IMG/VR virus record: IMGVR_UViG_2751185968_000013
Direction: 5' to 3' (one strand)
Source: a virus
Lineage: Duplodnaviria; Heunggongvirae; Uroviricota; Caudoviricetes
DNA length: 10,613 nt
Part shown: piece after piece, positions 1 to 10,613 of the stretch
Layout of the letters: each line of letters begins with the position of its first letter
How positions within the stretch are numbered: position 1 is the first letter of the stretch
The notes under the pieces: generated by a model
Databases searched by the model: none
What the model saw: the letters and a program-made list of their open reading frames with translations, nothing else
Told to the model about the DNA's origin: nothing
Made by a program: the position numbers and the translations under genes

Positions 1-165
1 TTTCTGGTGCGTACCGGGCTGAGAGGCGGTGTAAGTGAACTGTAGTTGCCATGTTTTACGGCAATGAGAGCAGAGATAGCGCTGATGTCCGGCAGTGCTT
101 TTGCCGTTACGCACCACGCCTTCAGTAGCGGAGCAGGAAGGACATCTGATGGAAATGGAAGCCAC
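1..165 (-). CDS. insA: IS1 InsA (N-terminal 55 codons, partial; GTG start at 165)
   Basis: Minus-strand translation from GTG at 165-163 gives [55 protein letters not shown], the zinc-finger N-terminus of InsA. The listed + strand ORF 46-255 is its antisense. Confidence 0.85.
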
Positions 166-220
166 GCAAGCACCTTAAAATCACCATCATACACTAAATC
201 AGTAAGTTGGCAGCATTACC
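1..220 (-). mobile_element. IS1-family insertion sequence, partial (left inverted-repeat end plus start of insA; continues beyond window start)
   Basis: Reverse complement of 1-220 reads GGTAATGCTGCCAACTTACTGATTTAGTGTATGATGGTG... followed by the insA reading frame, about 90% identical to the canonical IS1 left end as I recall it. The terminal inverted repeat ends at 220. Confidence 0.9.
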
Positions 221-634
221 AGAAATTTCATGTTTTAACTCATCATTATCTATAATATTTTTATGTGCATTCTCAATATATTTAGATATTGACAACTTCA
301 AAGGAGACTGTTCGTTAATGAAAGTTTTCTCCTGTTCTTTTTCACTTAATGCTAATTGTCCTTCTTCAGTATCCCACCATTTCTCAGCATATGCAGACAC
401 CAATAATTGTGCATATTCGGGTAAGTCACCATTAGATTTTGTTTTTAATTTTATATGATTTTCCCCAATTGCCTCAGCAAAATGCTTCAAAAGGTCTTGC
501 CAACATGGCACACCAAGATAACGACGAGACACACCGGAGCCGACAAATAACACTGGGGATGCTTCGAACTGCTTAAAATGCTCTTCGAGTTTTTTCTTAA
601 AATTCATACGGATACTATCTTTAAAAGAAATCAA
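221..634 (-). pseudogene. SIR2-like (sirtuin/ThsA-like) gene, N-terminal 138 codons only; 3' part cut off by the IS1 insertion at 220/221
   Basis: ORF 194-634 (-) starts at TTG 634 (SD-like AAAGGGG 1 nt upstream; alternative ATG at 607). Residues 27-49 PVLFVGSGVSRRYLGVPCWQDLL and 69-78 GDLPEYAQLL match the SIR2 N-terminal pattern recalled from ThsA (hFxGxGxS...G..W..LL...ndL..AQ). The last 8 codons plus stop (GNAANLLI*) are encoded by the IS1 inverted repeat, so the native ORF continued. GC content is low compared with the P4 backbone. Confidence 0.55.
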
Positions 635-997
635 GCCCCTTTATACTGATTACATTAAGATATTGCGGCTTACACCACCAGTAAATTGGTCAATTTTACG
701 TAAGAAATTTAATTATTTAGATTCAATTAATTATTAGATTAACTAATTGACTATCACTCCTGATGTAGCCGAATTGCTGTACCTTTGTTACGATGTAGGG
801 CTCAATCAAGGGTCCACTCCCCTTTTATAAGTAATCATGACTTTAAATTTAGGCTTAGGTGGAGCATTACTGCCGATTAGGTTCAATAAAAAGGCTTACC
901 TTAGTGAAAACTCGGCTATTTGGCACTGCTGACCAATTCCTCGTTTGAATAAGTCAGCAGCTTTCAATTTAGAGGCGAATGTGCGCTTTTAGATAAC

Positions 998-2266
998 TCA
1001 CTCGCCATTACCCCGATTGATCTTCGCATAGTCAAACGGCGTAATCCCCTTCTCCCGGTTCGCATCCAGAAAATCAGCCCACCACTGCAACATCAGCTTG
1101 CGCTCATCCAGATGTTCCGCTTTATGGATATACGCCGCCCTCACCGAATTGCGTTCCATATGGCTCATCTGCCTTTCCACCGCATCCTTCGACCATAACC
1201 CTGACTCAATCAATGAGCTACAGGCCATAGTGCGGAAGCCGTGGCCGCAAACCTCAACCTTGGTGTCATAGCCCATCACCCGCAATGCACTGTTCACCGT
1301 GTTTTCACTCATGGGCTTACTCGGATCGTGATCGCCAATAAAAATCAGCTCATGTTCGCCACAGAACTGTTTTATCTGCTTCAGGATCGCTAGCGCCTGC
1401 TTTGAAAGCGGCACCAGATGAGGTGTACGCATCTTTGCTCCTCGCTGAGAATGTTTCACACCGGGAATAGGTTCTCGCTCAGGCGGGATGGTCCACATTG
1501 ACGTTTCAAAATCGATTTCTGACCAGCGAGCAAAACGCAGCTCACTGGATCGAATAAAAATAAGCAGGGTAAGTTCGGTTGCCCAGCGGGTTAGTGGCCT
1601 GCCGGTGTATTCATCGATTTTCTGGAGTAATTCCGGGATACGCTTTAACTCCAGCGCCGGACGATGCTGTCGATTACTGGAAGCTACCGCCCCCGCCATC
1701 TCTTGCGCCGGATTGTAATCAATTAACCCGCTTTGCACTGCATAACGCATGATGGCCGTGGTGCGCTGTTGAAGGCGGGAAGCCACTTCAAGACGTCCGG
1801 ATTTCTCCACGGCTTTAATAGGAATTAACAGATCGCGGGTGCCCAGTTCAGCAATATTGTGGGAACCAATTGCCGGGAAGATATTGTCCTCCAGGCTCTT
1901 TTTTACACGATTAGCATGCTCTTCCGACCATTTTTGGTTGGTTACGAGCCACTCTCTGGCAACCTTCTCGAAAGTAATAATCTCTTTCGCCTGCTCTTCT
2001 TTCACAGCACGCTTATGCTCACGAGGATCGATACCAGCAGCTACCAGCTTTCTGGCCTCTTCCCTTTTCTTCCGCGCATCCGCCAGCGAAACATCCGGGT
2101 AAACGCCGAACGCCATCAAATGTTGTTTACCGCCAAAACGGAAACGAAATCGCCAATACTTTGAACCGCCAGGTTTTACAAGTAAGGACATGCCGTCGCC
2201 GTCAACAAGTGAATACTCTTTCTCCTCAGGTTTCGCAGAGCGAACTTTAGTATCCGTTAGGGCCAT
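998..2266 (-). CDS. int: P4-type tyrosine integrase
   Basis: Protein MALTDTKVRSAKPEEKEYSLVDGDGMSLLVKPGGSKYWRFRFRFGGKQHLMAFGVYPDVSLADARKK... with C-terminal catalytic region (HGFR, HMERNSVRAAYIHKAE) typical of P4/CP4-57-family integrases. Start chosen at ATG 2266 with SD GGAAGGAAG 7 nt upstream; the listed ORF start at 2344 is an in-frame extension without SD. Confidence 0.9.
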   Translation of the reverse strand: MALTDTKVRSAKPEEKEYSLVDGDGMSLLVKPGGSKYWRFRFRFGGKQHLMAFGVYPDVSLADARKKREEARKLVAAGIDPREHKRAVKEEQAKEIITFEKVAREWLVTNQKWSEEHANRVKKSLEDNIFPAIGSHNIAELGTRDLLIPIKAVEKSGRLEVASRLQQRTTAIMRYAVQSGLIDYNPAQEMAGAVASSNRQHRPALELKRIPELLQKIDEYTGRPLTRWATELTLLIFIRSSELRFARWSEIDFETSMWTIPPEREPIPGVKHSQRGAKMRTPHLVPLSKQALAILKQIKQFCGEHELIFIGDHDPSKPMSENTVNSALRVMGYDTKVEVCGHGFRTMACSSLIESGLWSKDAVERQMSHMERNSVRAAYIHKAEHLDERKLMLQWWADFLDANREKGITPFDYAKINRGNGE

Positions 2267-2292
2267 AATGGTCTTCCTTCCATTGGTATCTC

Positions 2293-2344
2293 GTGAGTAT
2301 ACAAGCAATATCGAATCGGCAAATATACTCATTAGTATACTCAC
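2293..2344 (-). promoter_or_regulatory. Candidate int promoter/operator: 10-bp inverted repeat GTGAGTATAC (2293-2302) / GTATACTCAC (2335-2344), with a third partial copy TATACTCA at 2324-2331 overlapping TATACT-like -10 hexamers
   Basis: Repeats read directly from sequence, 27-78 bp upstream of the int start codon. Role as an Int or repressor binding site is inferred. Confidence 0.35.
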
Positions 2345-2350
2345 AAGCCT

Positions 2351-2385
2351 GTTGATGTGGGTTGAGTCAGGTTGACTTCAGTTGA
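2351..2385. repeat. Four GTTGA pentamers in exact 10-bp phase (2351, 2361, 2371, 2381); candidate arm-type recombinase binding sites
   Basis: gttgatgtgg gttgagtcag gttgacttca gttgagggga read directly. Located between int and the att core. Function is inferred. Confidence 0.4.
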
Positions 2386-2429
2386 GGGGAAAAGCTGGAA
2401 AAGCCTTGTGTAGCGCGGATTTCAGGCAT

Positions 2430-2455
2430 AAAAAAAAGACCTCAGTTGAGGTCTA
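2430..2455 (-). terminator. Rho-independent terminator (minus strand) between att core and int
   Basis: Minus strand reads AGACCTC-caact-GAGGTCT followed by T8 (+ strand A-run 2430-2437; stem 2437-2443 / 2449-2455). Confidence 0.55.
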
Positions 2456-2467
2456 TTTACATACTTT

Positions 2468-2490
2468 TGGTGCGAAGGCCGGACTCAAAT
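2468..2490 (-). other. att core: tRNA 3'-end-like sequence (minus strand ATTTGAGTCCGGCCTTCGCACCA)
   Basis: Matches a tRNA T-arm/acceptor/CCA end, close to the tRNA-Leu (leuX) 3' end GAGTCCGGCCTTCGGCACCA that forms the P4 att core as I recall it, with one missing G. No full tRNA lies upstream of it; P4-like sequence is on both sides. Confidence 0.6.
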
Positions 2491-2682
2491 ATCAAAATAA
2501 GTTAATGATAAAAAACAAATAATAAAACACAACAATGAAATATGCCCCCTTTTGTGCCCCCACTGTTTTTCTGACCAATCTATTTTCAGCCCATCAATAA
2601 ATCGGAAAGTTAAATAATTTTTAATCAGTAAGTTTGATCCGTAGCCCGGATCCAAACCAGTGCATCTTTTATCCACATAAAA

Positions 2683-2975
2683 AATTTTTTTTCGAAAGAA
2701 CTGTTCACACTGTTCACCATTTAATTTTCTCCTTTTATTTCAGAGTGATAGGTGGTGAATAATGGGTGAAGGGTGAACATTCGATTCTTCACCTCCGGCA
2801 TTCTGCCGGTGTGACTCATACCGGTGATTAATCCCCCGTACTGAAAATCGCACAGGGAGAAAAAAGTTTTTTTTGATTTGATTGTTCACACTGTTCACCT
2901 TTCATTTTTCTCTTTTAATTTCAGTGTGATAACGGGTGAATATACGGTGAAGGGTGAACAGTGGATTGTTCACCT
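2683..2975. repeat. crr-like cis replication region: two ~115-bp direct repeats (period 181 bp) each carrying alpha-binding type I iterons
   Basis: Unit A: TGTTCACA 2702-2709, TGTTCACC 2711-2718, GGTGAACA 2772-2779. Unit B: TGTTCACA 2883-2890, TGTTCACC 2892-2899, GGTGAACA 2953-2960, TGTTCACC 2967-2974. P4 crr is described as two 120-bp repeats separated by ~60 bp containing TGTTCACC octamers. Confidence 0.75.
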
Positions 2976-2992
2976 TCGGGGGAGGTCGGGAT

Positions 2993-3017
2993 AAAAAAAG
3001 ACCGGCAGATGCCGGTC
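2993..3017 (-). terminator. Rho-independent terminator just downstream of alpha (minus strand)
   Basis: Perfect palindrome GACCGGCA-ga-TGCCGGTC (3000-3017) followed on the minus strand by T7 (+ strand A-run 2993-2999), 8 bp past the alpha stop codon. Confidence 0.7.
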
Positions 3018-3024
3018 AGGTGGG

Positions 3025-5358
3025 TCAGGTTGTTGCAGGGTCGTCACATTTTGGCAGCCAGTCGCCGTAGCTTTCCTCTTTCAGTGTCAGGTTGGTCTGT
3101 ATCCCCTGTTTGGTATGGCGCTTCTCGTAATTCAGTCCGTATTCCTTCAGCATCACCGGCAGCCCCAGCCCGAACATTTTCAGACTGAGTACATTCCGGT
3201 AGCCGTTTGCCTCCATGTAGGCCAGATAGGCGTGATAGAGGTATTTACGGTAATTACGCGGGATGATACTGGCGTTCCCCATATACATGCCGCTGGTCTG
3301 CGGCAGGGTTTCCAGATAGCCGATAAAATCAAACGTCGGGTCGGCATCCCGTTTGATGTTCAGCGCCTCGTCTGAGTTCTGCTGGGACTGAAGCAGTGAC
3401 CGGGCGAGCATCGGGTCGCTGAACTTCTGCATCAGGTGACGCACGATGACCGCCAGCTCGCGGGTGATTTTGTCCTTAAGCTGCGGGTCGCGCTCCTGCG
3501 GGGCTATCTGTTCCGGGAAGTGAATAATCACCCGCCGGCGTGACACGCCGCCGCTGCGGTCGGTGAAGCGCATCGGGTTATTGTTCACGGCCAGAATCAC
3601 CGCCGGGATATGCGTGGAGTACGCATCCCGGTATTTCGGGTCCACGGACACCGCATCGCCGCCGGTGATGGCCTTGAGTCCGGCACCGTCGCCGCTCCAT
3701 TTTTCCTGGTCCGGCAGGCGTATCAGTGAGAAGCCAGTTAACGCGGCACGTTCACGCGGGGATTCCAGCGTCTCAATGGTGGCCGACGTGGCGTTATCCT
3801 CCCCGGCCAGCAGGGTGGCGATTTCGGCCATGATACTTTTGCCGCTGCCGCCGGGACCGGTCACCTCCAGAAAGAGCTGCCAGTCGTAGCGGTTTGCCAG
3901 CACCATAAACAGTGCGGCCAGAATCACGTCGCGTTTTTCCGCACGGCCACCGGCGGCACGGTCAAGCCAGCGCCAGAACGCGGGGGCGTGGGTTTCCAGC
4001 GTTTCCCCTTCCACCGGTGGGGTGAAATCCACATCGCACAGGGTACGCATCCAGTGTGACGGACTGTGCGGGTGGAACGTGCCGTTCTGTGTGTCGAGCA
4101 CACCGTTACGAAAGCCAATCAGGCGGCGGGAGGGGGCTTCCTGCTGCGGAATAATCAGCTTCAGGGTGTCCACCACGGAGGCCACCTTCCCGGAGGAGAA
4201 CGGCGCGCGCAGACGCTGAAACAGCCCGGCCACATCCCGGGCAAAGTCCAGTGGCGGCAGCACCTTCCAGACACCATTTTCATAGCGGGACAGAAGCTGG
4301 CCGTTGGCATCGACCGCGAGCGCCTCGCCGTAATGCTCATAGATACGCATGGCCTTTTCGCTGGTACTCATGGCGGAAAACTCTGCTTCGCTCATGGTGT
4401 CGAACGGGCTTTCAGCCGGTGGCCGGATGGCATCGTAAATGGCCTTACGGGTGACCTCCCCGCCGTACTGCGTGAAGGCATCATTCCAGTCACCGAAGAC
4501 CGGCGGCAGGGCAACAACACCTTCACACGCATCTGCGGCTGCGGCGGCTTTTTTCTGGCCGTCACCGCTGAGGTCACGGTCTGCGGCAAGGACAATCTGA
4601 CAGGCCGGATGCTTCTGCCGGGCAAGGCTGGCCAGAGAAAGGAGGTTCACGGAAGAAAGCGCCACCATCACCGTTTCACCGGTCAGGTGATGTACGGTAA
4701 GTGCGGTCGCGTATCCCTCCGCTATCCACAGACGTTTTCCGGCCTGATTCTGTCCTTCAAGGGTGTGACAGGTGCCCCTGACCTGTCCGCCTTTCAGGGT
4801 GCGCTTACGGCCGTCAGCACTGATTAATTGAAGGTTAACCAGTTCGCCGCTGTCGTCATACAGTGGCACCACAAGGTCACCGGCGCGCCAGCTCACGCCA
4901 CCGGCTCTGTGTGTGCCGGTCAGCATCCGGCATTCCCGGCCGGGAAAGCCCTTGCGGGTCAGGTAGGCGTTACCGGTTCCGGGACGGGTTTTTGCCATCA
5001 GGGTTTGTGCCAGTGCGGCGGCGTTCTTCCGGGCAGCGTCTGTTTCAGCAACGGCGGCGGCCGTCACTGCCGGGTCAGCCGGGGGCAGACTGCCGGTCAC
5101 GGCAGCCACCTTTGCGGCCACGTCGGACGGGGAGACACCAAACACCTTTTCAACCAGTTTCAGGCCGTCACCGGCACCACACTGATTGCAGTACCAGGTG
5201 CCGCGCCCCTCCCTGTCATCAAAACGGAAGCGGTCACTCCCGCCACAGACCGGACAGGGCTGATGATGGTTCTTCAGCACCTGAATCCCCAGCGCCGGGA
5301 GAATACGCGGCCAGTGGCCGAGCGCATGGCTGACGGTGGCGGTTACGTTCATTTTCAT
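3025..5358 (-). CDS. alpha: P4 alpha-type multifunctional replication protein (primase, helicase, iteron-binding)
   Basis: 777 aa, the length recalled for P4 alpha. N-terminal zinc-finger primase motif CPVCGGSDRFRFDD...WYCNQCG, Walker A GPGGSGKS in the helicase region, SD AAGGAG 9 nt upstream of ATG 5358. Positioned next to the iteron repeats. Confidence 0.9.
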   Translation of the reverse strand: MKMNVTATVSHALGHWPRILPALGIQVLKNHHQPCPVCGGSDRFRFDDREGRGTWYCNQCGAGDGLKLVEKVFGVSPSDVAAKVAAVTGSLPPADPAVTAAAVAETDAARKNAAALAQTLMAKTRPGTGNAYLTRKGFPGRECRMLTGTHRAGGVSWRAGDLVVPLYDDSGELVNLQLISADGRKRTLKGGQVRGTCHTLEGQNQAGKRLWIAEGYATALTVHHLTGETVMVALSSVNLLSLASLARQKHPACQIVLAADRDLSGDGQKKAAAAADACEGVVALPPVFGDWNDAFTQYGGEVTRKAIYDAIRPPAESPFDTMSEAEFSAMSTSEKAMRIYEHYGEALAVDANGQLLSRYENGVWKVLPPLDFARDVAGLFQRLRAPFSSGKVASVVDTLKLIIPQQEAPSRRLIGFRNGVLDTQNGTFHPHSPSHWMRTLCDVDFTPPVEGETLETHAPAFWRWLDRAAGGRAEKRDVILAALFMVLANRYDWQLFLEVTGPGGSGKSIMAEIATLLAGEDNATSATIETLESPRERAALTGFSLIRLPDQEKWSGDGAGLKAITGGDAVSVDPKYRDAYSTHIPAVILAVNNNPMRFTDRSGGVSRRRVIIHFPEQIAPQERDPQLKDKITRELAVIVRHLMQKFSDPMLARSLLQSQQNSDEALNIKRDADPTFDFIGYLETLPQTSGMYMGNASIIPRNYRKYLYHAYLAYMEANGYRNVLSLKMFGLGLPVMLKEYGLNYEKRHTKQGIQTNLTLKEESYGDWLPKCDDPATT

Positions 5359-5372
5359 GGTGTTGTTCTCCT

Positions 5373-5693
5373 TCAGTGCAGTACCGGCGCTTTTATGTGA
5401 CGGGCACAGAGTTCATCCATCACAACCAGCCCGAGAAAGGACAGCGACGGTGCGGCCTTCAGGGGGCCGGATTCCATTAAATCTTCCAGCAGGGCACAGG
5501 CTATCTGACGCCCTTTTTCCTCACCGTGCTGGCGCAGATAAAAGCCTTCCAGCTCAGCGGCGATGGCCGCCTCCAGTGACTCAAGGGTGAGATGCGGGTA
5601 GCGGTGCTGACGTTCGCACACGGTCAGCCAGGCACAGGCGACAGCACGACGGTAAAGGGCTGCGCGTAAGACGGGCGGTAAGGGTGTTTTCAT
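5373..5693 (-). CDS. Hypothetical protein, 106 aa, immediately upstream of alpha in the same operon
   Basis: ORF with SD GGAGG 7 nt upstream of ATG 5693; stop 15 nt before the alpha start. No recognisable motif. Confidence 0.55.
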
Positions 5694-5828
5694 TTGCTTT
5701 CCTCCCTGTGACAGATGACTGCATTCCGTGCCGGTTGCATTAACTGATAAGGCATATCTGCGTCTCCTGAAGACGTGCGTATCCCTGCGCGAATACGCAC
5801 ATTTAATTTTTCGGGTGTCGTTTTTTAA

Positions 5829-6284
5829 TTACAGATAATTGCGGTAACTGTTATCCGGGGTGATTTCCGGGTCAGGCTCCGTGCGGGGAATTTCCCGCCA
5901 TTCCCGCGCTACCGGTGCTGCCCGGCTGACCGGAACAGTGTCCTGCGGGTAAATATCCAGATATTTCTCCCGCCATTTCTGTAATTCCGGGTCTCCGGCC
6001 ATTTCTTTCAGTACCGCATGCCGGTTTACGGGGCTGCGTTTAAACAGGTCAGGACGGTCACAGGTAAATTCCCGCAGAAAACGCCCCAGCGGGATGTCTG
6101 TGGTGCGCCCGTCGGCGAGGATACGCACAAGGATACTGAATTTACGGCGGTACGGGTTCCAGACAATGTCCGGGCAGCGGTACGGCATTTCCCACGGAAT
6201 ACCGTCTTCCAGAATGCCGACCACGGCCACATCGGGAAAACCGGCAGAACGGTAAATCTCACCGGGCTGGGGAAAATCAAACAT
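5829..6284 (-). CDS. Hypothetical protein, 151 aa (same length and position as P4 orf151)
   Basis: ATG 6284 with SD GGGAG upstream; its start overlaps the epsilon stop (ATGTTTGA). Position between epsilon and alpha, and the length, match P4 orf151. Confidence 0.6.
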   Translation of the reverse strand: MFDFPQPGEIYRSAGFPDVAVVGILEDGIPWEMPYRCPDIVWNPYRRKFSILVRILADGRTTDIPLGRFLREFTCDRPDLFKRSPVNRHAVLKEMAGDPELQKWREKYLDIYPQDTVPVSRAAPVAREWREIPRTEPDPEITPDNSYRNYL

Positions 6285-6564
6285 GCGTCCTGTCTCCCCG
6301 GTCTTTCTGCTGGGCGAGAAAATCGCGGCACAGGCCTTTGGCTTTCAGCTCATTCAGCACAAAATCAATATCTTCATTCAGGTAGCTGAAAATATGCGGA
6401 ATGTAGAGCTGATGCAGGCCGGAGAGTTCACGGTGAATCAAATCACCCCCAACAAACTGGGATACGGCGCTGGCGCGGTTGAGCTTATGGTAAGCCTCAA
6501 TGCTGAGGTGTTCACGGGCGTCATGACGTGCTGAGACGGTCTGAGGGGCTTTTTTATTACGCAC
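6277..6564 (-). CDS. epsilon: P4 epsilon-like derepression protein (95 aa)
   Basis: GTG start at 6564 with SD GGAGG 6 nt upstream gives exactly 95 aa ([10 protein letters not shown]...DRGDRTHV), the length recalled for P4 epsilon. The listed 190-aa ORF 6277-6849 is an unsupported 5' extension. Confidence 0.6.
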
Positions 6565-6754
6565 GGGACACCTCCACCACCGGCAGACGGGCAGCAAGGG
6601 AGAGCACATAGTCACGGACAAGGGAACGGCGGGCACTGCGTTCATCACCGGCCACGGTGCGAAGCATACAGATACGGGGATGACGGTCTGCGCGACGGAC
6701 AGCCGCAAACACAAAGACAAATTCAGGGTGTGAGGGGGTAAGGGTTGTAGCCAT
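6557..6754 (-). CDS. Small ORF (65 aa), first translated gene of the left operon; possible kil analogue
   Basis: ATG 6754 with strong SD AGGAGG 8 nt upstream; stop overlaps the epsilon GTG start (translational coupling). Lies directly downstream of the seqC-like hairpin. The longer in-frame ORF to 7201 lacks any SD. Confidence 0.35.
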
Positions 6755-6784
6755 GATGGCAGCCTCCTGTGAATAGCAAATAAC

Positions 6785-7081
6785 GCTATCGCCGGAGTTC
6801 TCACGCTCGATGGCGATAGCCCAGACGGGGGTGAGAATACCGGCTTCACAGGATACCGGCCAGCCCGGAGGCTGCCCCGCCTGAGCTACCATTGACTCTG
6901 CGGCATAATGAGCGGACGCGGGCAGGATGCACGGAATGCCATCTGCACGACTGACCACACACCACACCATAATCTGGCGCTCTGTGGCATTGATTGCGAC
7001 ACAAAAAAAGACGCGTGGCGCGTCATATGTCGCCTGTGAATTGCTCGGGTTCTCACGCCCGGCTGCCGATTTTGCGGCAGC
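6785..7081 (-). promoter_or_regulatory. Candidate P4-type RNA immunity leader (seqA / CI-RNA seqB / seqC arrangement)
   Basis: Direct repeat GTTCTCACGC at 7049-7058 and 6797-6806 (+ coordinates; transcribed as GCGUGAGAAC), with a partially complementary GTGAGAAT at 6831-6838 between them. The downstream copy sits in the 18-nt loop of a 9-bp stem (GCTATCGCC 6785-6793 / GGCGATAGC 6812-6820). A 7-bp hairpin (7062-7068 / 7075-7081) sits at the predicted transcript 5' end. Confidence 0.35.
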
Positions 7082-7087
7082 GGAAAA

Positions 7088-7117
7088 ACTATATCCGCAA
7101 ATGCCGGAAAAAGGCAA
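7088..7117 (-). promoter_or_regulatory. Candidate sigma70 promoter for the left operon (PLE-like)
   Basis: Minus strand TTGCCT (-35; + 7112-7117), 18-bp spacer, TATAGT (-10; + 7088-7093), just upstream of the immunity leader and downstream of vis. Confidence 0.4.
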
Positions 7118-7152
7118 GCCAGAAAAAGGGAGTTTTTGCAGAGCGGGCATCA

Positions 7153-7419
7153 TCATGCGTCGTACCCCCGTTTGCGTCCGGCAATGCGTCCGGCCATCCA
7201 TGCGGTGACTTCAGAGTGCAGCCAGGCCACATTTTTACCGCCAAGACTCACCTGCGGCGGAAATTCCCCCTTACGGATGAGTTCATAGATGGTCGAGCGT
7301 GACAGGCCGCACAGGTGCATCACTTCCGGCAGACGTAAAAAACGCTCCTGCGTGATGTCCGGCAGCGGCATCAGTGGCGTCACAGGGGCGGGAGACGGGG
7401 AAGAAAAAACAGCTTGCAT
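7153..7419 (-). CDS. vis: Vis/AlpA-family excisionase-like transcriptional regulator (88 aa)
   Basis: Contains [48 protein letters not shown], the AlpA/Vis helix-turn-helix signature. 88 aa matches P4 Vis (orf88). SD GAGG 7 nt upstream of ATG 7419. Confidence 0.8.
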
Positions 7420-7520
7420 CGGGCTACCTCGTTAATGTCCATACAGCACCGGATAAGTCCGTCCGGCTTCGGGTAGCGCTTTATTTTGTGAATATTTTTG
7501 GCAGATGCAACAGGGGGGAT

Positions 7521-7538
7521 TTGTTCCGGCAGTCTTAC
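7521..7538 (-). promoter_or_regulatory. TGT-N12-ACA box (Delta/Ogr-type activator site); candidate late promoter PLL driving vis
   Basis: TGTtccggcagtcttACA read directly; about 110 bp upstream of the vis start. P2/P4 late promoters carry TGT-N12-ACA centred near -55. Confidence 0.45.
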
Positions 7539-7697
7539 AATGGCTGTGTATTTTTTATACATCAGCGCCAGATGGCTTTAAAACGCTCTGGAAGGAGCTG
7601 GAAAAAATTATAGTGAAATACAAATTGTTTTTTCTTATTTATTTCAGTGGATTAATAAAAATAAAAAGTAATAAACAGCACAAAAAGTCTATGAGCG

Positions 7698-7801
7698 GGT
7701 GAACAGTGGTGAACAGACGGTGAACAGTCATTACTGCGATTGTTCACCCTTTAACTTACTGTATTACTTATCTTTTTTCTTATGGTGAACAGAGGTGAAC
7801 A
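7698..7801. repeat. ori-like iteron cluster: six type I octamers
   Basis: GGTGAACA at 7698-7705, 7708-7715, 7719-7726, 7784-7791, 7794-7801 and inverted TGTTCACC at 7741-7748. Flanked by an AT-rich stretch (7601-7690). Lies about 4.7 kb from the crr-like repeats, as in P4 (ori and crr 4.5 kb apart). Confidence 0.7.
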
Positions 7802-7880
7802 GTAAAATATAAAAAAACAAACAGTAAGCCGGTTTTTCCTGCGACCTTTTCCTGGCTTGCCGGTCTGAGGATGAGTCTCC

Positions 7881-7898
7881 TGTGTCAGGGCTGGCACA
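7881..7898 (+). promoter_or_regulatory. TGT-N12-ACA box; candidate Delta-activated Psid late promoter
   Basis: TGTgtcagggctggcACA, centred about 80 bp upstream of the sid ATG, with a CACAAT -10-like hexamer at 7932-7937. Confidence 0.5.
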
Positions 7899-7970
7899 TC
7901 TGCAATGCGTCGTGTTGTTGTCCGGTGTACGTCACAATTTTCTTAACCTGAAGTGACGAGGAGCCGGAAA

Positions 7971-8705
7971 ATGTCTGACAACACCATCCCTGAATATCTG
8001 CAACCCGCACTGGCACAACTGGAAAAGGCCAGAGCCGCCCACCTTGAGAACGCCCGCCTGATGGATGAGACCGTCACGGCCATTGAACGGGCAGAGCAGG
8101 AAAAAAATGCGCTGGCGCAGGCCGACGGAAATGACGCTGACGACTGGCGCACGGCCTTTCGTGCAGCCGGTGGTGTCCTGAGCGACGAGCTGAAACAGCG
8201 CCACATTGAGCGCGTGGCACGCCGGGAGCTGGTACAGGAATATGACAATCTGGCCGTGGTGCTGAATTTTGAACGTGAACGCCTGAAAGGGGCGTGTGAC
8301 AGCACGGCCACCGCCTACCGGAAGGCACATCATCACCTGCTGAGTCTGTATGCAGAGCATGAGCTGGAACACGCCCTGAATGAAACCTGTGAGGCGCTTG
8401 TCCGGGCAATGCATCTGAGTATCCTGGTACAGGAAAATCCGCTCGCCAACACCACCGGCCATCAGGGCTACGTCGCACCGGAAAAGGCTGTCATGCAGCA
8501 GGTGAAATCATCGCTGGAACAGAAAATTAAACAGATGCAAATCAGCCTCACCGGCGAGCCGGTTCTCCGGCTGACCGGACTGTCAGCGGCAACACTCCCG
8601 CACATGGATTATGAGGTGGCAGGCACACCGGCACAGCGCAAGGTGTGGCAGGACAAAATAGACCAGCAGGGAGCAGAGCTTAAGGCCAGAGGACTGCTGT
8701 CATGA
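7971..8705 (+). CDS. sid: Sid-like capsid size determination (external scaffold) protein, 244 aa
   Basis: ATG 7971 with SD GAGGAG 7 nt upstream (the listed ORF start at 7953 is an upstream GTG extension). Length 244 aa matches P4 Sid; first gene downstream of the late promoter box; stop overlaps the delta start (ATGA). Confidence 0.8.
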   Translation: MSDNTIPEYLQPALAQLEKARAAHLENARLMDETVTAIERAEQEKNALAQADGNDADDWRTAFRAAGGVLSDELKQRHIERVARRELVQEYDNLAVVLNFERERLKGACDSTATAYRKAHHHLLSLYAEHELEHALNETCEALVRAMHLSILVQENPLANTTGHQGYVAPEKAVMQQVKSSLEQKIKQMQISLTGEPVLRLTGLSAATLPHMDYEVAGTPAQRKVWQDKIDQQGAELKARGLLS

Positions 8706-9202
8706 TTTACTGCCCGTCGTGTGGACATGTTGCTCACACCCGTCGCGCACATTTCATGGACGATGGCACCAAGATAATGATTGCACAGTGCCGGAATATT
8801 TATTGCTCTGCGACATTTGAAGCGAGTGAAAGCTTTTTCTCTGACTGTAAAGATTCAGGAATGGAATACATTTCAGGCAAACAGAGATACCGCGATTCAC
8901 TGACGTCAGCCTCCGGCAGTATGAAACGCCCGAAAAGAATGCTTGTTACCGGATATTGTTGTCGGAGATGTAAAGGCCTTGCACTGTCAAGAACATCGCG
9001 GCGTCTGTCTCAGGAAGTCACCGAGCGTTTTTATGTGTGCACGGATCCGGGCTGTGGTCTGGTGTTTAAAACGCTTCAGACCATCAACCGTTTTATTGTC
9101 CGCCCGGTCACGCCGGACGAACTGGCAGAAAGCCTGCATGAAAAACAGGAACTGCCGCCAGTACGCTTAAAAACACAATCATATTCGCTGCGTCTGGAAT
9201 GA
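8702..9202 (+). CDS. delta: Delta-like late transcription activator (tandem Ogr-type zinc fingers), 166 aa
   Basis: Two Ogr-like Cys clusters (CPSCG...C..IYC and CCRRC...CTDPGC). 166 aa matches P4 Delta, a covalent dimer of Ogr-like domains. Confidence 0.85.
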   Translation: MIYCPSCGHVAHTRRAHFMDDGTKIMIAQCRNIYCSATFEASESFFSDCKDSGMEYISGKQRYRDSLTSASGSMKRPKRMLVTGYCCRRCKGLALSRTSRRLSQEVTERFYVCTDPGCGLVFKTLQTINRFIVRPVTPDELAESLHEKQELPPVRLKTQSYSLRLE

Positions 9203-9275
9203 GGGCTGCCGGTTAACACCGGCCGTCGCCGCACACCGTATTTTTATTCTTCAGCATGATGAGAAAGAGATAACG

Positions 9276-9848
9276 ATGGAAAGCACAGCCTTACAGCAGG
9301 TCTTTGACACCTGTCAGAATAACAAAGCAGCATGGCTGCAACGCAAAAATGAGCTGGCTGCGGCCGAACAGGAATATCTGCGGCTTCTGTCCGGGGAAGG
9401 CAGAAACGTCAGTCGCCTGGACGAATTACGCAATATTATCGAAGTCAGAAAATGGCAGGTGAATCAGGCTGCCGGTCGTTATATTCGTTCGCATGAAGCC
9501 GTTCAGCACATCAGCATCCGCGACCGGCTGAATGATTTTATGCAGCAGCACGGCACAGCACTGGCGGCGGCACTGGCACCGGAGCTGATGGGCTACAGTG
9601 AGCTGACGGCCATTGCCCGAAACTGTGCCATACAGCGTGCCACAGATGCCCTGCGTGAAGCCCTTCTGTCCTGGCTTGCGAAGGGGGAAAAAATTAATTA
9701 TTCCGCACAGGATAGTGACATTTTAACGACCATCGGATTCAGGCCTGACGCGACTTCGGTGGATGACAGCCGTGAAAAATTCACCCCTGCGCAGAACATG
9801 ATTTTTTCGCGTAAAAGTGCGCAACTGGCATCACGTCAGTCTGTGTAA
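9276..9848 (+). CDS. psu: Psu-like polarity suppression / capsid decoration protein, 190 aa
   Basis: Length 190 aa and position (last late gene before cos) match P4 Psu; the N-terminus MESTALQQVFDTCQNNKAAWLQRKNELAAAEQEYLRLL matches Psu as I recall it. Confidence 0.8.
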   Translation: MESTALQQVFDTCQNNKAAWLQRKNELAAAEQEYLRLLSGEGRNVSRLDELRNIIEVRKWQVNQAAGRYIRSHEAVQHISIRDRLNDFMQQHGTALAAALAPELMGYSELTAIARNCAIQRATDALREALLSWLAKGEKINYSAQDSDILTTIGFRPDATSVDDSREKFTPAQNMIFSRKSAQLASRQSV

Positions 9849-9883
9849 AATTCCCCGAAAATCCGCCCGTTTTTACTGAAAAA

Positions 9884-9923
9884 AGCCATGCATCGATAAG
9901 GTGCATGGCTTTGCATGCGTTTT
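9884..9923 (+). terminator. Candidate terminator of the sid-delta-psu operon
   Basis: 9-bp stem AGCCATGCA (9884-9892) / TGCATGGCT (9902-9910) with a 9-nt loop, followed by TTGCATGCGTTTT. The T-tract is interrupted, so this is a weak call. Confidence 0.4.
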
Positions 9924-10012
9924 CCTGCCTCATTTTCTGCAGACCGCGCCATTCCCGGCGCAGCCTGAGCGTGACTGTGCAACTGCATTAAAACCGCCCT
10001 GCAAAGCGGGCG

Positions 10013-10031
10013 GGCGTGGCGGGGAGAGCAT
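10013..10031. other. cos-like cohesive-end site
   Basis: GGCGTGGCGGGGAGAGCAT matches 16 of 19 positions of the P2/P4 cohesive end GGCGAGGCGGGGAAAGCAC as I recall it. Preceded by the palindrome CCGCCCtgcaaagcGGGCGG (9994-10013) and located downstream of psu, as in P4. Confidence 0.5.
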
Positions 10032-10237
10032 TGCGCGCCATGCCGTGAGGATAATTATTTTATTAATATTCAGCTCATGACGTCTGTAATTGGGAAGAAG
10101 TGAAAAATGCTCATGTAACTTATGAATATTTAACGTTAAACCGATCAAATTCTAGGGTGAAAACATTGCCCGCACGAAGTCAATGGGGTTATGCTTAATT
10201 TTTGAACATGATACATATCCCAAGATAAGAAGCTAAG

Positions 10238-10613
10238 TGAACCGCCCCGGGTTTCCTGGAGAGTGTTTTATCTGTGAACTCAGGCTGCCAGATCATCGTT
10301 TCCGATGGAAGCATAATAAGCTTTTTCTGCTTCTGCCGGAGGGATGTGGCCCAGCCTTTCCAGCAATCGTCGATTATTATACCAGTCCACCCACGTGAGT
10401 GTGGCCAGTTCCACTTCTGCACGGTTTTTCCAGCTCTTACGGTGTATTACCTCCGCTTTGTAAAGACCATTGATGCTCTCCGCCATCGCGTTGTCATACG
10501 AGTCGCCTGTACTTCCTGTTGATGCCAGTAATCCGGCTTCCTTAAGCCGCTGTGTGTAGGCCAGCGATACATACTGAGAACCTTTATCACTGTGATGGAC
10601 CGTGCCGGACGGT
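10238..10613 (-). mobile_element. IS3-family insertion sequence, partial (IS629/IS3411-like end; continues beyond window end)
   Basis: Terminal sequence TGAACCGCCCCGGGTTTCCTGGAGAGTGTTTTATCTGTGAACTCAG starts at 10238, which I recall as the IS629-type inverted repeat. It is followed by the transposase C-terminus on the minus strand. Confidence 0.8.
10280..10613 (-). CDS. IS3-family transposase (OrfB) C-terminal part, partial
   Basis: Minus-strand translation ...PSGTVHHSDKGSQYVSLAYTQRLKEAGLLASTGSTGDSYDNAMAESINGLYKAEVIHRKSWKNRAEVELATLTWVDWYNNRRLLERLGHIPPAEAEKAYYASIGNDDLAA* carries the DDE-integrase signature (HSD..., SYDNA..ES.N). The listed ORF 10280-10486 is just the portion after an internal Met. 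Confidence 0.85.
   Translation of the reverse strand, partial: PSGTVHHSDKGSQYVSLAYTQRLKEAGLLASTGSTGDSYDNAMAESINGLYKAEVIHRKSWKNRAEVELATLTWVDWYNNRRLLERLGHIPPAEAEKAYYASIGNDDLAA

Follow-up and report, generated by a model that had tools for sequence, protein, structure and literature searches.

The minus-strand open reading frame (ORF) at 194-634 is very probably the dead 5' remnant of a PDC-S25-type SIR2 gene, an ordinary pseudogene of a known kind that has no function. The initial annotation of the window (the whole 10,613-nucleotide stretch of viral DNA analysed) read this ORF as a candidate SIR2 defence gene of ThsA-like type that an IS1 element had inactivated, and placed it in the cargo hotspot of a P4-like satellite. 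The family and the inactivation were both borne out; the location and several details of the damage were not. Loci compared with the window are designated by L numbers. The relevant features are:

1..220, minus strand: IS1 end, the leftmost 220 bp of the 768-bp element, with an inverted repeat at 198-220 and the insA GTG at 165
194..220, minus strand: IS1-derived tail of the ORF, 8 codons (GNAANLLI) plus TAG, made of bases of the IS1 inverted repeat
221..607, minus strand: native SIR2 remnant, codons 1-129 of a PDC-S25-type gene, by PADLOC match and DNA identity
608..634, minus strand: in-frame 5' extension of 9 codons from a TTG, where the ORF listing takes the first start after a stop
635..997, no strand: AT-rich spacer between int and SIR2, 37% GC, conserved with intact E. 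coli loci
998..2266, minus strand: P4-family tyrosine integrase (int), 422 aa, Pfam Arm-DNA-bind_3, Phage_int_M and Phage_integrase
2468..2487, no strand: att core TGGTGC-GAAGGCCGGACTCA, a hybrid junction with a left arm like EcPF16 int/leuX and a right arm from P4 (crr, alpha)

The ORF listing gives 194..634(-) as 146 codons from a TTG start with the C-terminus ...NIIDNDELKHEIS followed directly by GNAANLLI and the stop. The composition count is 34% GC for this fragment versus 52% for the whole window, and the int stop at 998 leaves a 363-bp gap (635-997) between the ORF and int. The initial description of an AT-rich frame located 363 bp from int that reads straight into IS1 at 220/221 and takes its last 8 codons and stop from the element was therefore accurate, and the ORF contains each of the motifs that it quoted (PVLFVGSGVSRRYLGVPCWQDLL, GDLPEYAQLL and IIDNDE). 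The spacer at 635..997 is the presumed promoter region of the SIR2 gene. Both PGAP annotation and the family consensus set the start at the ATG at 607 (MNFKKK...), and 34 homologues align from MxFK. The first 9 codons of the listed ORF are, by this alignment, probably an untranslated leader. The family start at 607 means that 129 native codons are left and not the 138 residues first counted.

Family identity was established by a combination of profile and DNA comparisons. The 146-aa ORF has no Pfam match and nothing useful in NCBIfam, so PADLOC and DNA similarity alone named the fragment. It matches the PADLOC PDC-S25 profile at positions 4-131 with E=1.2e-37, and its matches to the ThsA and SIR2 profiles are weak. 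The profile search that had been proposed as a check of the fragment thus succeeded with PADLOC and failed with Pfam. BLAST aligned window positions 221-1000 at 96.7% DNA identity to at least 25 complete E. coli chromosomes that carry an intact gene encoding a 529-aa protein annotated "SIR2 family protein" (e.g. WP_096037622.1). The PDC-S25 match together with 96.7% identity to intact annotated genes indicates that the fragment match is not due to chance. The intact E. coli protein matches the PDC-S25 HMM end to end (residues 1-526, E=1.7e-164) and has a Pfam SIR2_2 domain (PF13289) at residues 138-260 (E=2e-25, 89.9 bits versus a cut-off of 24.5).

Searches with the intact protein lead to defence NADases. 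A phmmer search of the PDB returned KomC (E=1.6e-11) and ThsA (E=7e-8). The AF2 model has a pLDDT of 81.6, and Foldseek superposes its N-terminal ~300 residues on ThsA, DSR2 and KomC (E ~1e-9, probability 1.00); the predicted structure has a SIR2 Rossmann fold. The C-terminal half of the intact protein is helical, has generic helical-repeat matches only and has no SLOG domain in Pfam. A homologue search returned 1567 proteins; nearly all of the full-length ones are 520-530 aa long, so proteins of this family do not normally stop around residue 138. Full-length homologues occur in Vibrio, Aeromonas, Pseudomonas, Marinobacter, Variovorax and Tenacibaculum. Residues G23, G25, S27, N143, D145 and H179 are invariant in 34 homologues with identities down to 35%. 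A housekeeping CobB-type sirtuin was rejected as an identity for the gene; the Pfam match is to SIR2_2 rather than SIR2, the genes lie on mobile elements and the closest structures are defence NADases.

The catalytic core lies in the part of the gene that is missing. The native remnant at 221..607 retains the GxGxS NAD-binding loop (VGSGVS) and is without the catalytic Asn and His, both of which the ancestral gene had. The IIDNDE sequence had been read as a possible catalytic Asn motif at the break point. It sits 7-12 residues before the break and is not that motif; the true one is IITTNWD (N143), followed by KIHGC (H179), and this motif region begins 14 residues past the break. The aligned counterpart of H179 in KomC is H146, which is mutated in PDB 9xvc. 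Gene nucleotides 388-821, which are lost, contain N143, H179 and the entire Pfam SIR2_2 match, and the window ORF accordingly has no SIR2_2 domain. Removal of the catalytic core means that neither remnant can be an NADase.

The element at the break is IS1. Positions 220->198 on the minus strand read GGTAATGCTGCCAACTTACTGAT, which is the IS1 inverted repeat, and window positions 165->1 code for the InsA zinc ribbon (Pfam PF03811 Zn_ribbon_InsA, E=1.3e-20). The complete 768-bp element is present at L008 10415-11182, and 100% identical copies on Shigella boydii and S. dysenteriae plasmids carry the annotation 'IS1 family transposase'. The full element has ~23-bp imperfect inverted repeats, and its called genes match Pfam InsA and DDE_Tnp_IS1. 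A look-up of the exact protein recovered this ORF from chromosomes with the NCBI protein labels Shigella flexneri, S. boydii and S. dysenteriae; the fragment protein is labelled MULTISPECIES [Shigella], and hundreds of Shigella contigs encode it in identical form. Window positions 1-10241 are 99.94-99.97% identical to loci L006-L009. More of the gene and its neighbours, expected beyond IS1 outside the window, are present in these sister genomes. Aligning the intact E. coli gene with the Shigella loci by blastn gives gene nucleotides 1-386/387, the 768 bp of IS1 and then nucleotides 822-1590. With IS1 in place, 434 bp (nucleotides 388-821, residues 130-274) are absent from these near-identical Shigella chromosomes. 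The ORF that follows IS1 (260 aa as called) matches PDC-S25 profile positions 282-515 with E=3.2e-45. Joining the two halves in silico, as was initially suggested, is impossible with this stretch missing.

IS1 usually yields target duplications of 8-9 bp. The duplication that was expected here is absent: the flanking 9-mers differ, with GAAATTTCT on one side and AAAAATCCC on the other. The loss of 434 bp beside the element explains the missing duplication. Judged from sequence, the combination of no duplication and a 434-bp gap is the signature of either an IS1-mediated adjacent deletion or a recombination event involving two copies of IS1. The two IS1 junctions show the same sequence in 13 sister loci, and L018, a contig that ends inside IS1, shares the left one. 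Identical junctions across the sister loci indicate one ancestral event, and the IS1/SIR2 junction is absent from the E. coli complete genomes searched. IS1 would have landed in the gene in a Shigella ancestor, and an IS1-mediated adjacent deletion or IS1-IS1 recombination would then have removed the 434 bp that include N143 and H179. The predicted products left are an N-terminal fragment of 129 codons extended by 8 codons from IS1 and, on the far side of the element, a C-terminal fragment of 255 codons that has lost its context. IS activity is also seen elsewhere in the locus. Another IS3-family element replaces part of the psu-delta region of the satellite at L005 646-1802 (CP160647.1), which represents continuing IS erosion of the whole locus.

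Two other accounts of the remnant were considered. A simple IS1 insertion would have left the gene split but complete between duplicated targets, and restorable by removal of IS1. IS1 is well established to generate such duplications, and the C-terminal remnant does come after IS1 in sister genomes, but alleles with 96.7% identity on either side of the gap have 434 bp that the Shigella gene lacks, and the 9-mers beside IS1 differ. Because 434 is not a multiple of 3, a precise loss of IS1 would still leave a frameshift in a gene without its catalytic core. Simple insertion is highly improbable, and for the genomes that have been sequenced the alignments already refute it. The second account is that the 137/146-aa product is a functional small protein that has been retained, for example as a dominant-negative or regulatory fragment. 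The occurrence of the identical fragment on hundreds of Shigella contigs, the lack of further stop codons and the 7 synonymous versus 1 non-synonymous changes on the Shigella branch (both remnants) would fit retention; however, the same junctions everywhere fit recent clonal inheritance, 7 + 1 changes are too few to infer either selection or decay and the synonymous excess may predate the disruption. The tail of the fragment is derived from IS1 and no natural homologue is so short. Retention of function is very unlikely for these reasons, and a dead 5' remnant is the preferred interpretation.

The location of the gene was resolved by comparison of the window with phage P4 and with the leuX island of E. 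coli EcPF16. The initial annotation put the gene at the int-proximal edge of the P4 cargo hotspot, which lies between psu/cos and the satellite's own int. The att core was located through P4 annotation and alignment. The P4 attP core is annotated at 4078-4097 of P4, P4 homology begins exactly there, and window positions 2468-10012 are 97.9% identical to P4 over the stretch between the attP core and the right cos end. On the left side of the core, the window sequence tracks the EcPF16 spacer between int and leuX. In a three-way comparison the junction is a clean hybrid: the left arm reads TTTACATACTTT here, versus TTTACATGCTTT for EcPF16 and GGAAGTAAGAA for P4, and the right arm reads AAATATCAAAATAAG here, versus AAACATCAAAATAAG for P4, whereas EcPF16 has tRNA sequence at that place. 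The core at 2468-2487 has a 1-nt deletion (TGGTGC-GAAGG) compared to both the attP core of P4 and the 3' end of leuX (TGGTGCCGAAGG), and excision at the junction may be impaired as a result. No tRNA was detected in the window by ARAGORN, and the canonical leuX 3' end was not found there with up to 3 mismatches because of the 1-nt deletion in the core. The int at 998..2266 is also called in sister contigs and has 79% nucleotide identity to the leuX-island int of EcPF16. Its sequence context indicates that it belongs to the island with SIR2 and hsdSMR and is not the satellite's own int.

Sister Shigella genomes contain what the window does not reach. Past psu/cos there is satellite cargo of 359-, 178- and 336-aa genes, followed by the satellite's own 421-aa int and then tRNA-Leu(CAA). 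In E. coli the int-SIR2-hsdS-hsdM-hsdR module is found in the leuX island and also in a tRNA-Phe island. No psu, sid or alpha gene is present in the 47 kb annotated left of int in the E. coli leuX island, an island of ~38 kb if a degenerate core-like repeat at L011:11050 marks its far end. The att core between int and alpha, together with a separate int and cargo beyond psu, identifies int-SIR2-hsdSMR as a second, tandem island. The gene is thus part of an int-SIR2-hsdS-hsdM-hsdR module of a tRNA-associated genomic island that lies in tandem with a P4-like satellite in leuX, having integrated at the satellite's distal att site. Tandem leuX islands mimic the circular P4 gene order, so the position of int next to alpha is misleading.

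Several further features of the satellite were recorded. Within the true psu-int cargo (L013 10971-13548), the 359-aa and 178-aa proteins are PADLOC PDC-M18A/B, and the 336-aa protein has no Pfam or PADLOC match. PDC-M18 is listed as a common P4-hotspot cluster (PMC11754643). Homology to the sister loci stops at ~10237-10241, 9 bp upstream of the PDC-M18A start in those genomes, and window positions 10238-10613 hold the end of an IS3-family element (rve_3/rve_2 C-terminus, minus strand) that is absent from all sister loci. Rfam detects C4 antisense RNA (74.9 bits), isrK (69.7 bits) and the c4-a1b1 target (49.5 bits) at 6809-7094(-); such P4 immunity RNA elements are expected for a P4-type satellite. 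Two 120-bp direct repeats at 2679-2798 and 2860-2979 are P4 crr (cis replication region), each ~80% identical to the reciprocal P4 copy.

The neighbours of the intact gene were compared across hosts. A convergent type I restriction-modification (R-M) system in the order SIR2-hsdS-hsdM-hsdR is kept in every enterobacterial locus examined, a linkage by descent given that these loci share at least 89% DNA identity. Distant homologues are solitary genes: the Aeromonas copy adjoins thrABC, the Pseudomonas copy lies in an integrase island, the Variovorax copy is a moron of a P22-like prophage and the Salinimonas copy lies in a mobile region. The type I R-M system is thus not an obligate partner, and the stand-alone genes fit the single-gene class of PADLOC (PDC-S). 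No HerA gene was found beside SIR2 in any locus examined, and yjgR, a HerA-like gene near leuX, belongs to the core genome rather than to the island. The EcPF16 locus has a TIR-domain protein and a transcriptional regulator just past hsdR (L002 2702-4251). Both are separated from SIR2 by hsdRMS, at a distance of ~6.5 kb, and none of the other loci examined has them. Two E. coli islands have, beyond hsdR (L030 7286-11022 and L001 1-3031), a thymidylate synthase, a MazG-like protein, an XRE regulator and an 'alpha-glutamyl/putrescinyl thymine pyrophosphorylase clade 3 protein'. These genes make up a phage-style thymidine-hypermodification set in a chromosomal island that carries an intact SIR2-hsdRMS. 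A dGTPase-family protein is encoded nearby.

These comparisons bear on two alternative assignments of the gene, as satellite cargo and as part of a composite system. That SIR2 is cargo of the psu/cos-int defence hotspot is suggested by the adjoining P4-family integrase and by genuine P4 hotspots that carry a PDC-S25-type SIR2 as their single-gene cargo (Rousset pFR88; Domainator cluster 'Sir2-like'). This assignment is improbable given the att core between int and alpha, the 421-aa int by tRNA-Leu(CAA) and the PDC-M18A/B and 336-aa genes right after psu/cos in sister genomes, and the intact E. coli loci that lie in a leuX island without psu/sid/alpha or in a tRNA-Phe island. SIR2 plus type I R-M amounts to ~9 kb, which would probably not fit an 11.6-kb P4 genome. 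The initial annotation also allowed for SIR2 as one component of a multi-gene system, for which no evidence was found; the R-M neighbour is not conserved in distant homologues. The specific possibility that SIR2 and the convergent hsdRMS form one multi-gene system, crippled by the loss of SIR2, accounts for the constant gene order in the enterobacterial loci inspected, but those loci are at least 89% identical in DNA and homologues at 36-72% identity in Aeromonas, Pseudomonas, Variovorax and Salinimonas have no R-M neighbour. SIR2 and the hsd genes are convergent rather than co-transcribed, and the PADLOC class is a single-gene candidate (PDC-S). A composite system is correspondingly unlikely. 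A single-gene SIR2 protein encoded in a tandem leuX island is the interpretation adopted here.

Comparison with known systems places the ancestral gene within PDC-S25. The intact homologue matches the PADLOC profile end to end and each remnant matches its own half, whereas the window copy is broken, with residues 130-274 deleted and IS1 inserted. The SIR2 gene of the E. coli M605 P4 hotspot (pFR88) belongs to the same PDC-S25 family (E=4e-85), shares PxLFVGSG, IITTNxD and KIHGCC, and is a single gene on a P4-integrase-associated element. The pFR88 protein is 31% identical to the one encoded here and is truly in the psu-int hotspot, whereas the gene here is in a larger tandem island by type I R-M. 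Rousset et al. (2022) list pFR88 under 'additional tested systems' and not among the validated ones (PMC9122126 Table S2B). ThsA has the same SIR2 fold and the catalytic Asn/His of the intact homologue; it is the top Foldseek match (8btp), and the PADLOC ThsA HMM matches the SIR2 part with E=6e-22. ThsA has a SLOG/STALD signal-binding domain, whereas the family here has a helical C-terminus in its place and no conserved ThsB/TIR partner. Membership of Thoeris was rejected on the missing SLOG/STALD domain and a TIR gene confined to EcPF16, ~6.5 kb off, and membership of SIR2-HerA on the lack of an adjacent HerA in any locus examined.

The DSR proteins provide the best functional analogy. DSR2/DSR1 are single polypeptides in which a helical C-terminal region follows the SIR2 NADase at the N-terminus, the layout also predicted for the intact protein (Foldseek E ~5e-9). 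They are ~1000-1200 aa long versus 529 aa here, and the Dsr1 HMM matches the SIR2 part only (E=1.7e-12). DSR1/2 membership was rejected, and no evidence was found that the intact protein senses tail tubes as DSR does. KomC is the best PDB sequence match (E=1.6e-11), with the catalytic His aligned. KomC is described as a subunit of 264 aa consisting of SIR2 only, which acts together with KomB and dITP signalling (PMC13454610). The gene here has no KomA/KomB neighbours.

The ancestor of the remnant would have been a 529-aa single-gene PDC-S25-type SIR2 protein with a ThsA/KomC/DSR2-like NAD+-hydrolase domain in its N-terminal ~290 residues and an α-helical C-terminal domain. By analogy with these enzymes, the intact protein would most likely sense a phage cue through its C-terminal half and then deplete NAD+ to abort infection. 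Literature searches found no experimental anti-phage or NADase activity for any PDC-S25 member, an incidental listing in an O157:H7 strain as the only report of PDC-S25, and nothing relevant for Shigella combined with defence systems and IS elements. A more ambitious proposal is that an intact PDC-S25 allele encodes a single-protein sensor-NADase with an undescribed helical sensor and that its loss in Shigella was selected rather than accidental. Shigella is an NAD/nicotinate auxotroph, and a suicide effector that depletes NAD+ could, for example, be unusually costly in such a host. This proposal has little chance of being correct as a whole; all that the data show on selected versus accidental loss is one IS1 event inherited by many Shigella genomes.

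An IS1-made pseudogene of a catalogued candidate defence family in Shigella is a kind of finding that is already known, and apart from annotation it is of little significance. The correct label for the "hypothetical protein" that hundreds of Shigella contigs encode is a SIR2 (PDC-S25) pseudogene fragment, and genes that flank an int beside P4 alpha are not satellite cargo on that ground alone. The locus is one more case of IS-driven erosion of accessory/defence genes in Shigella.
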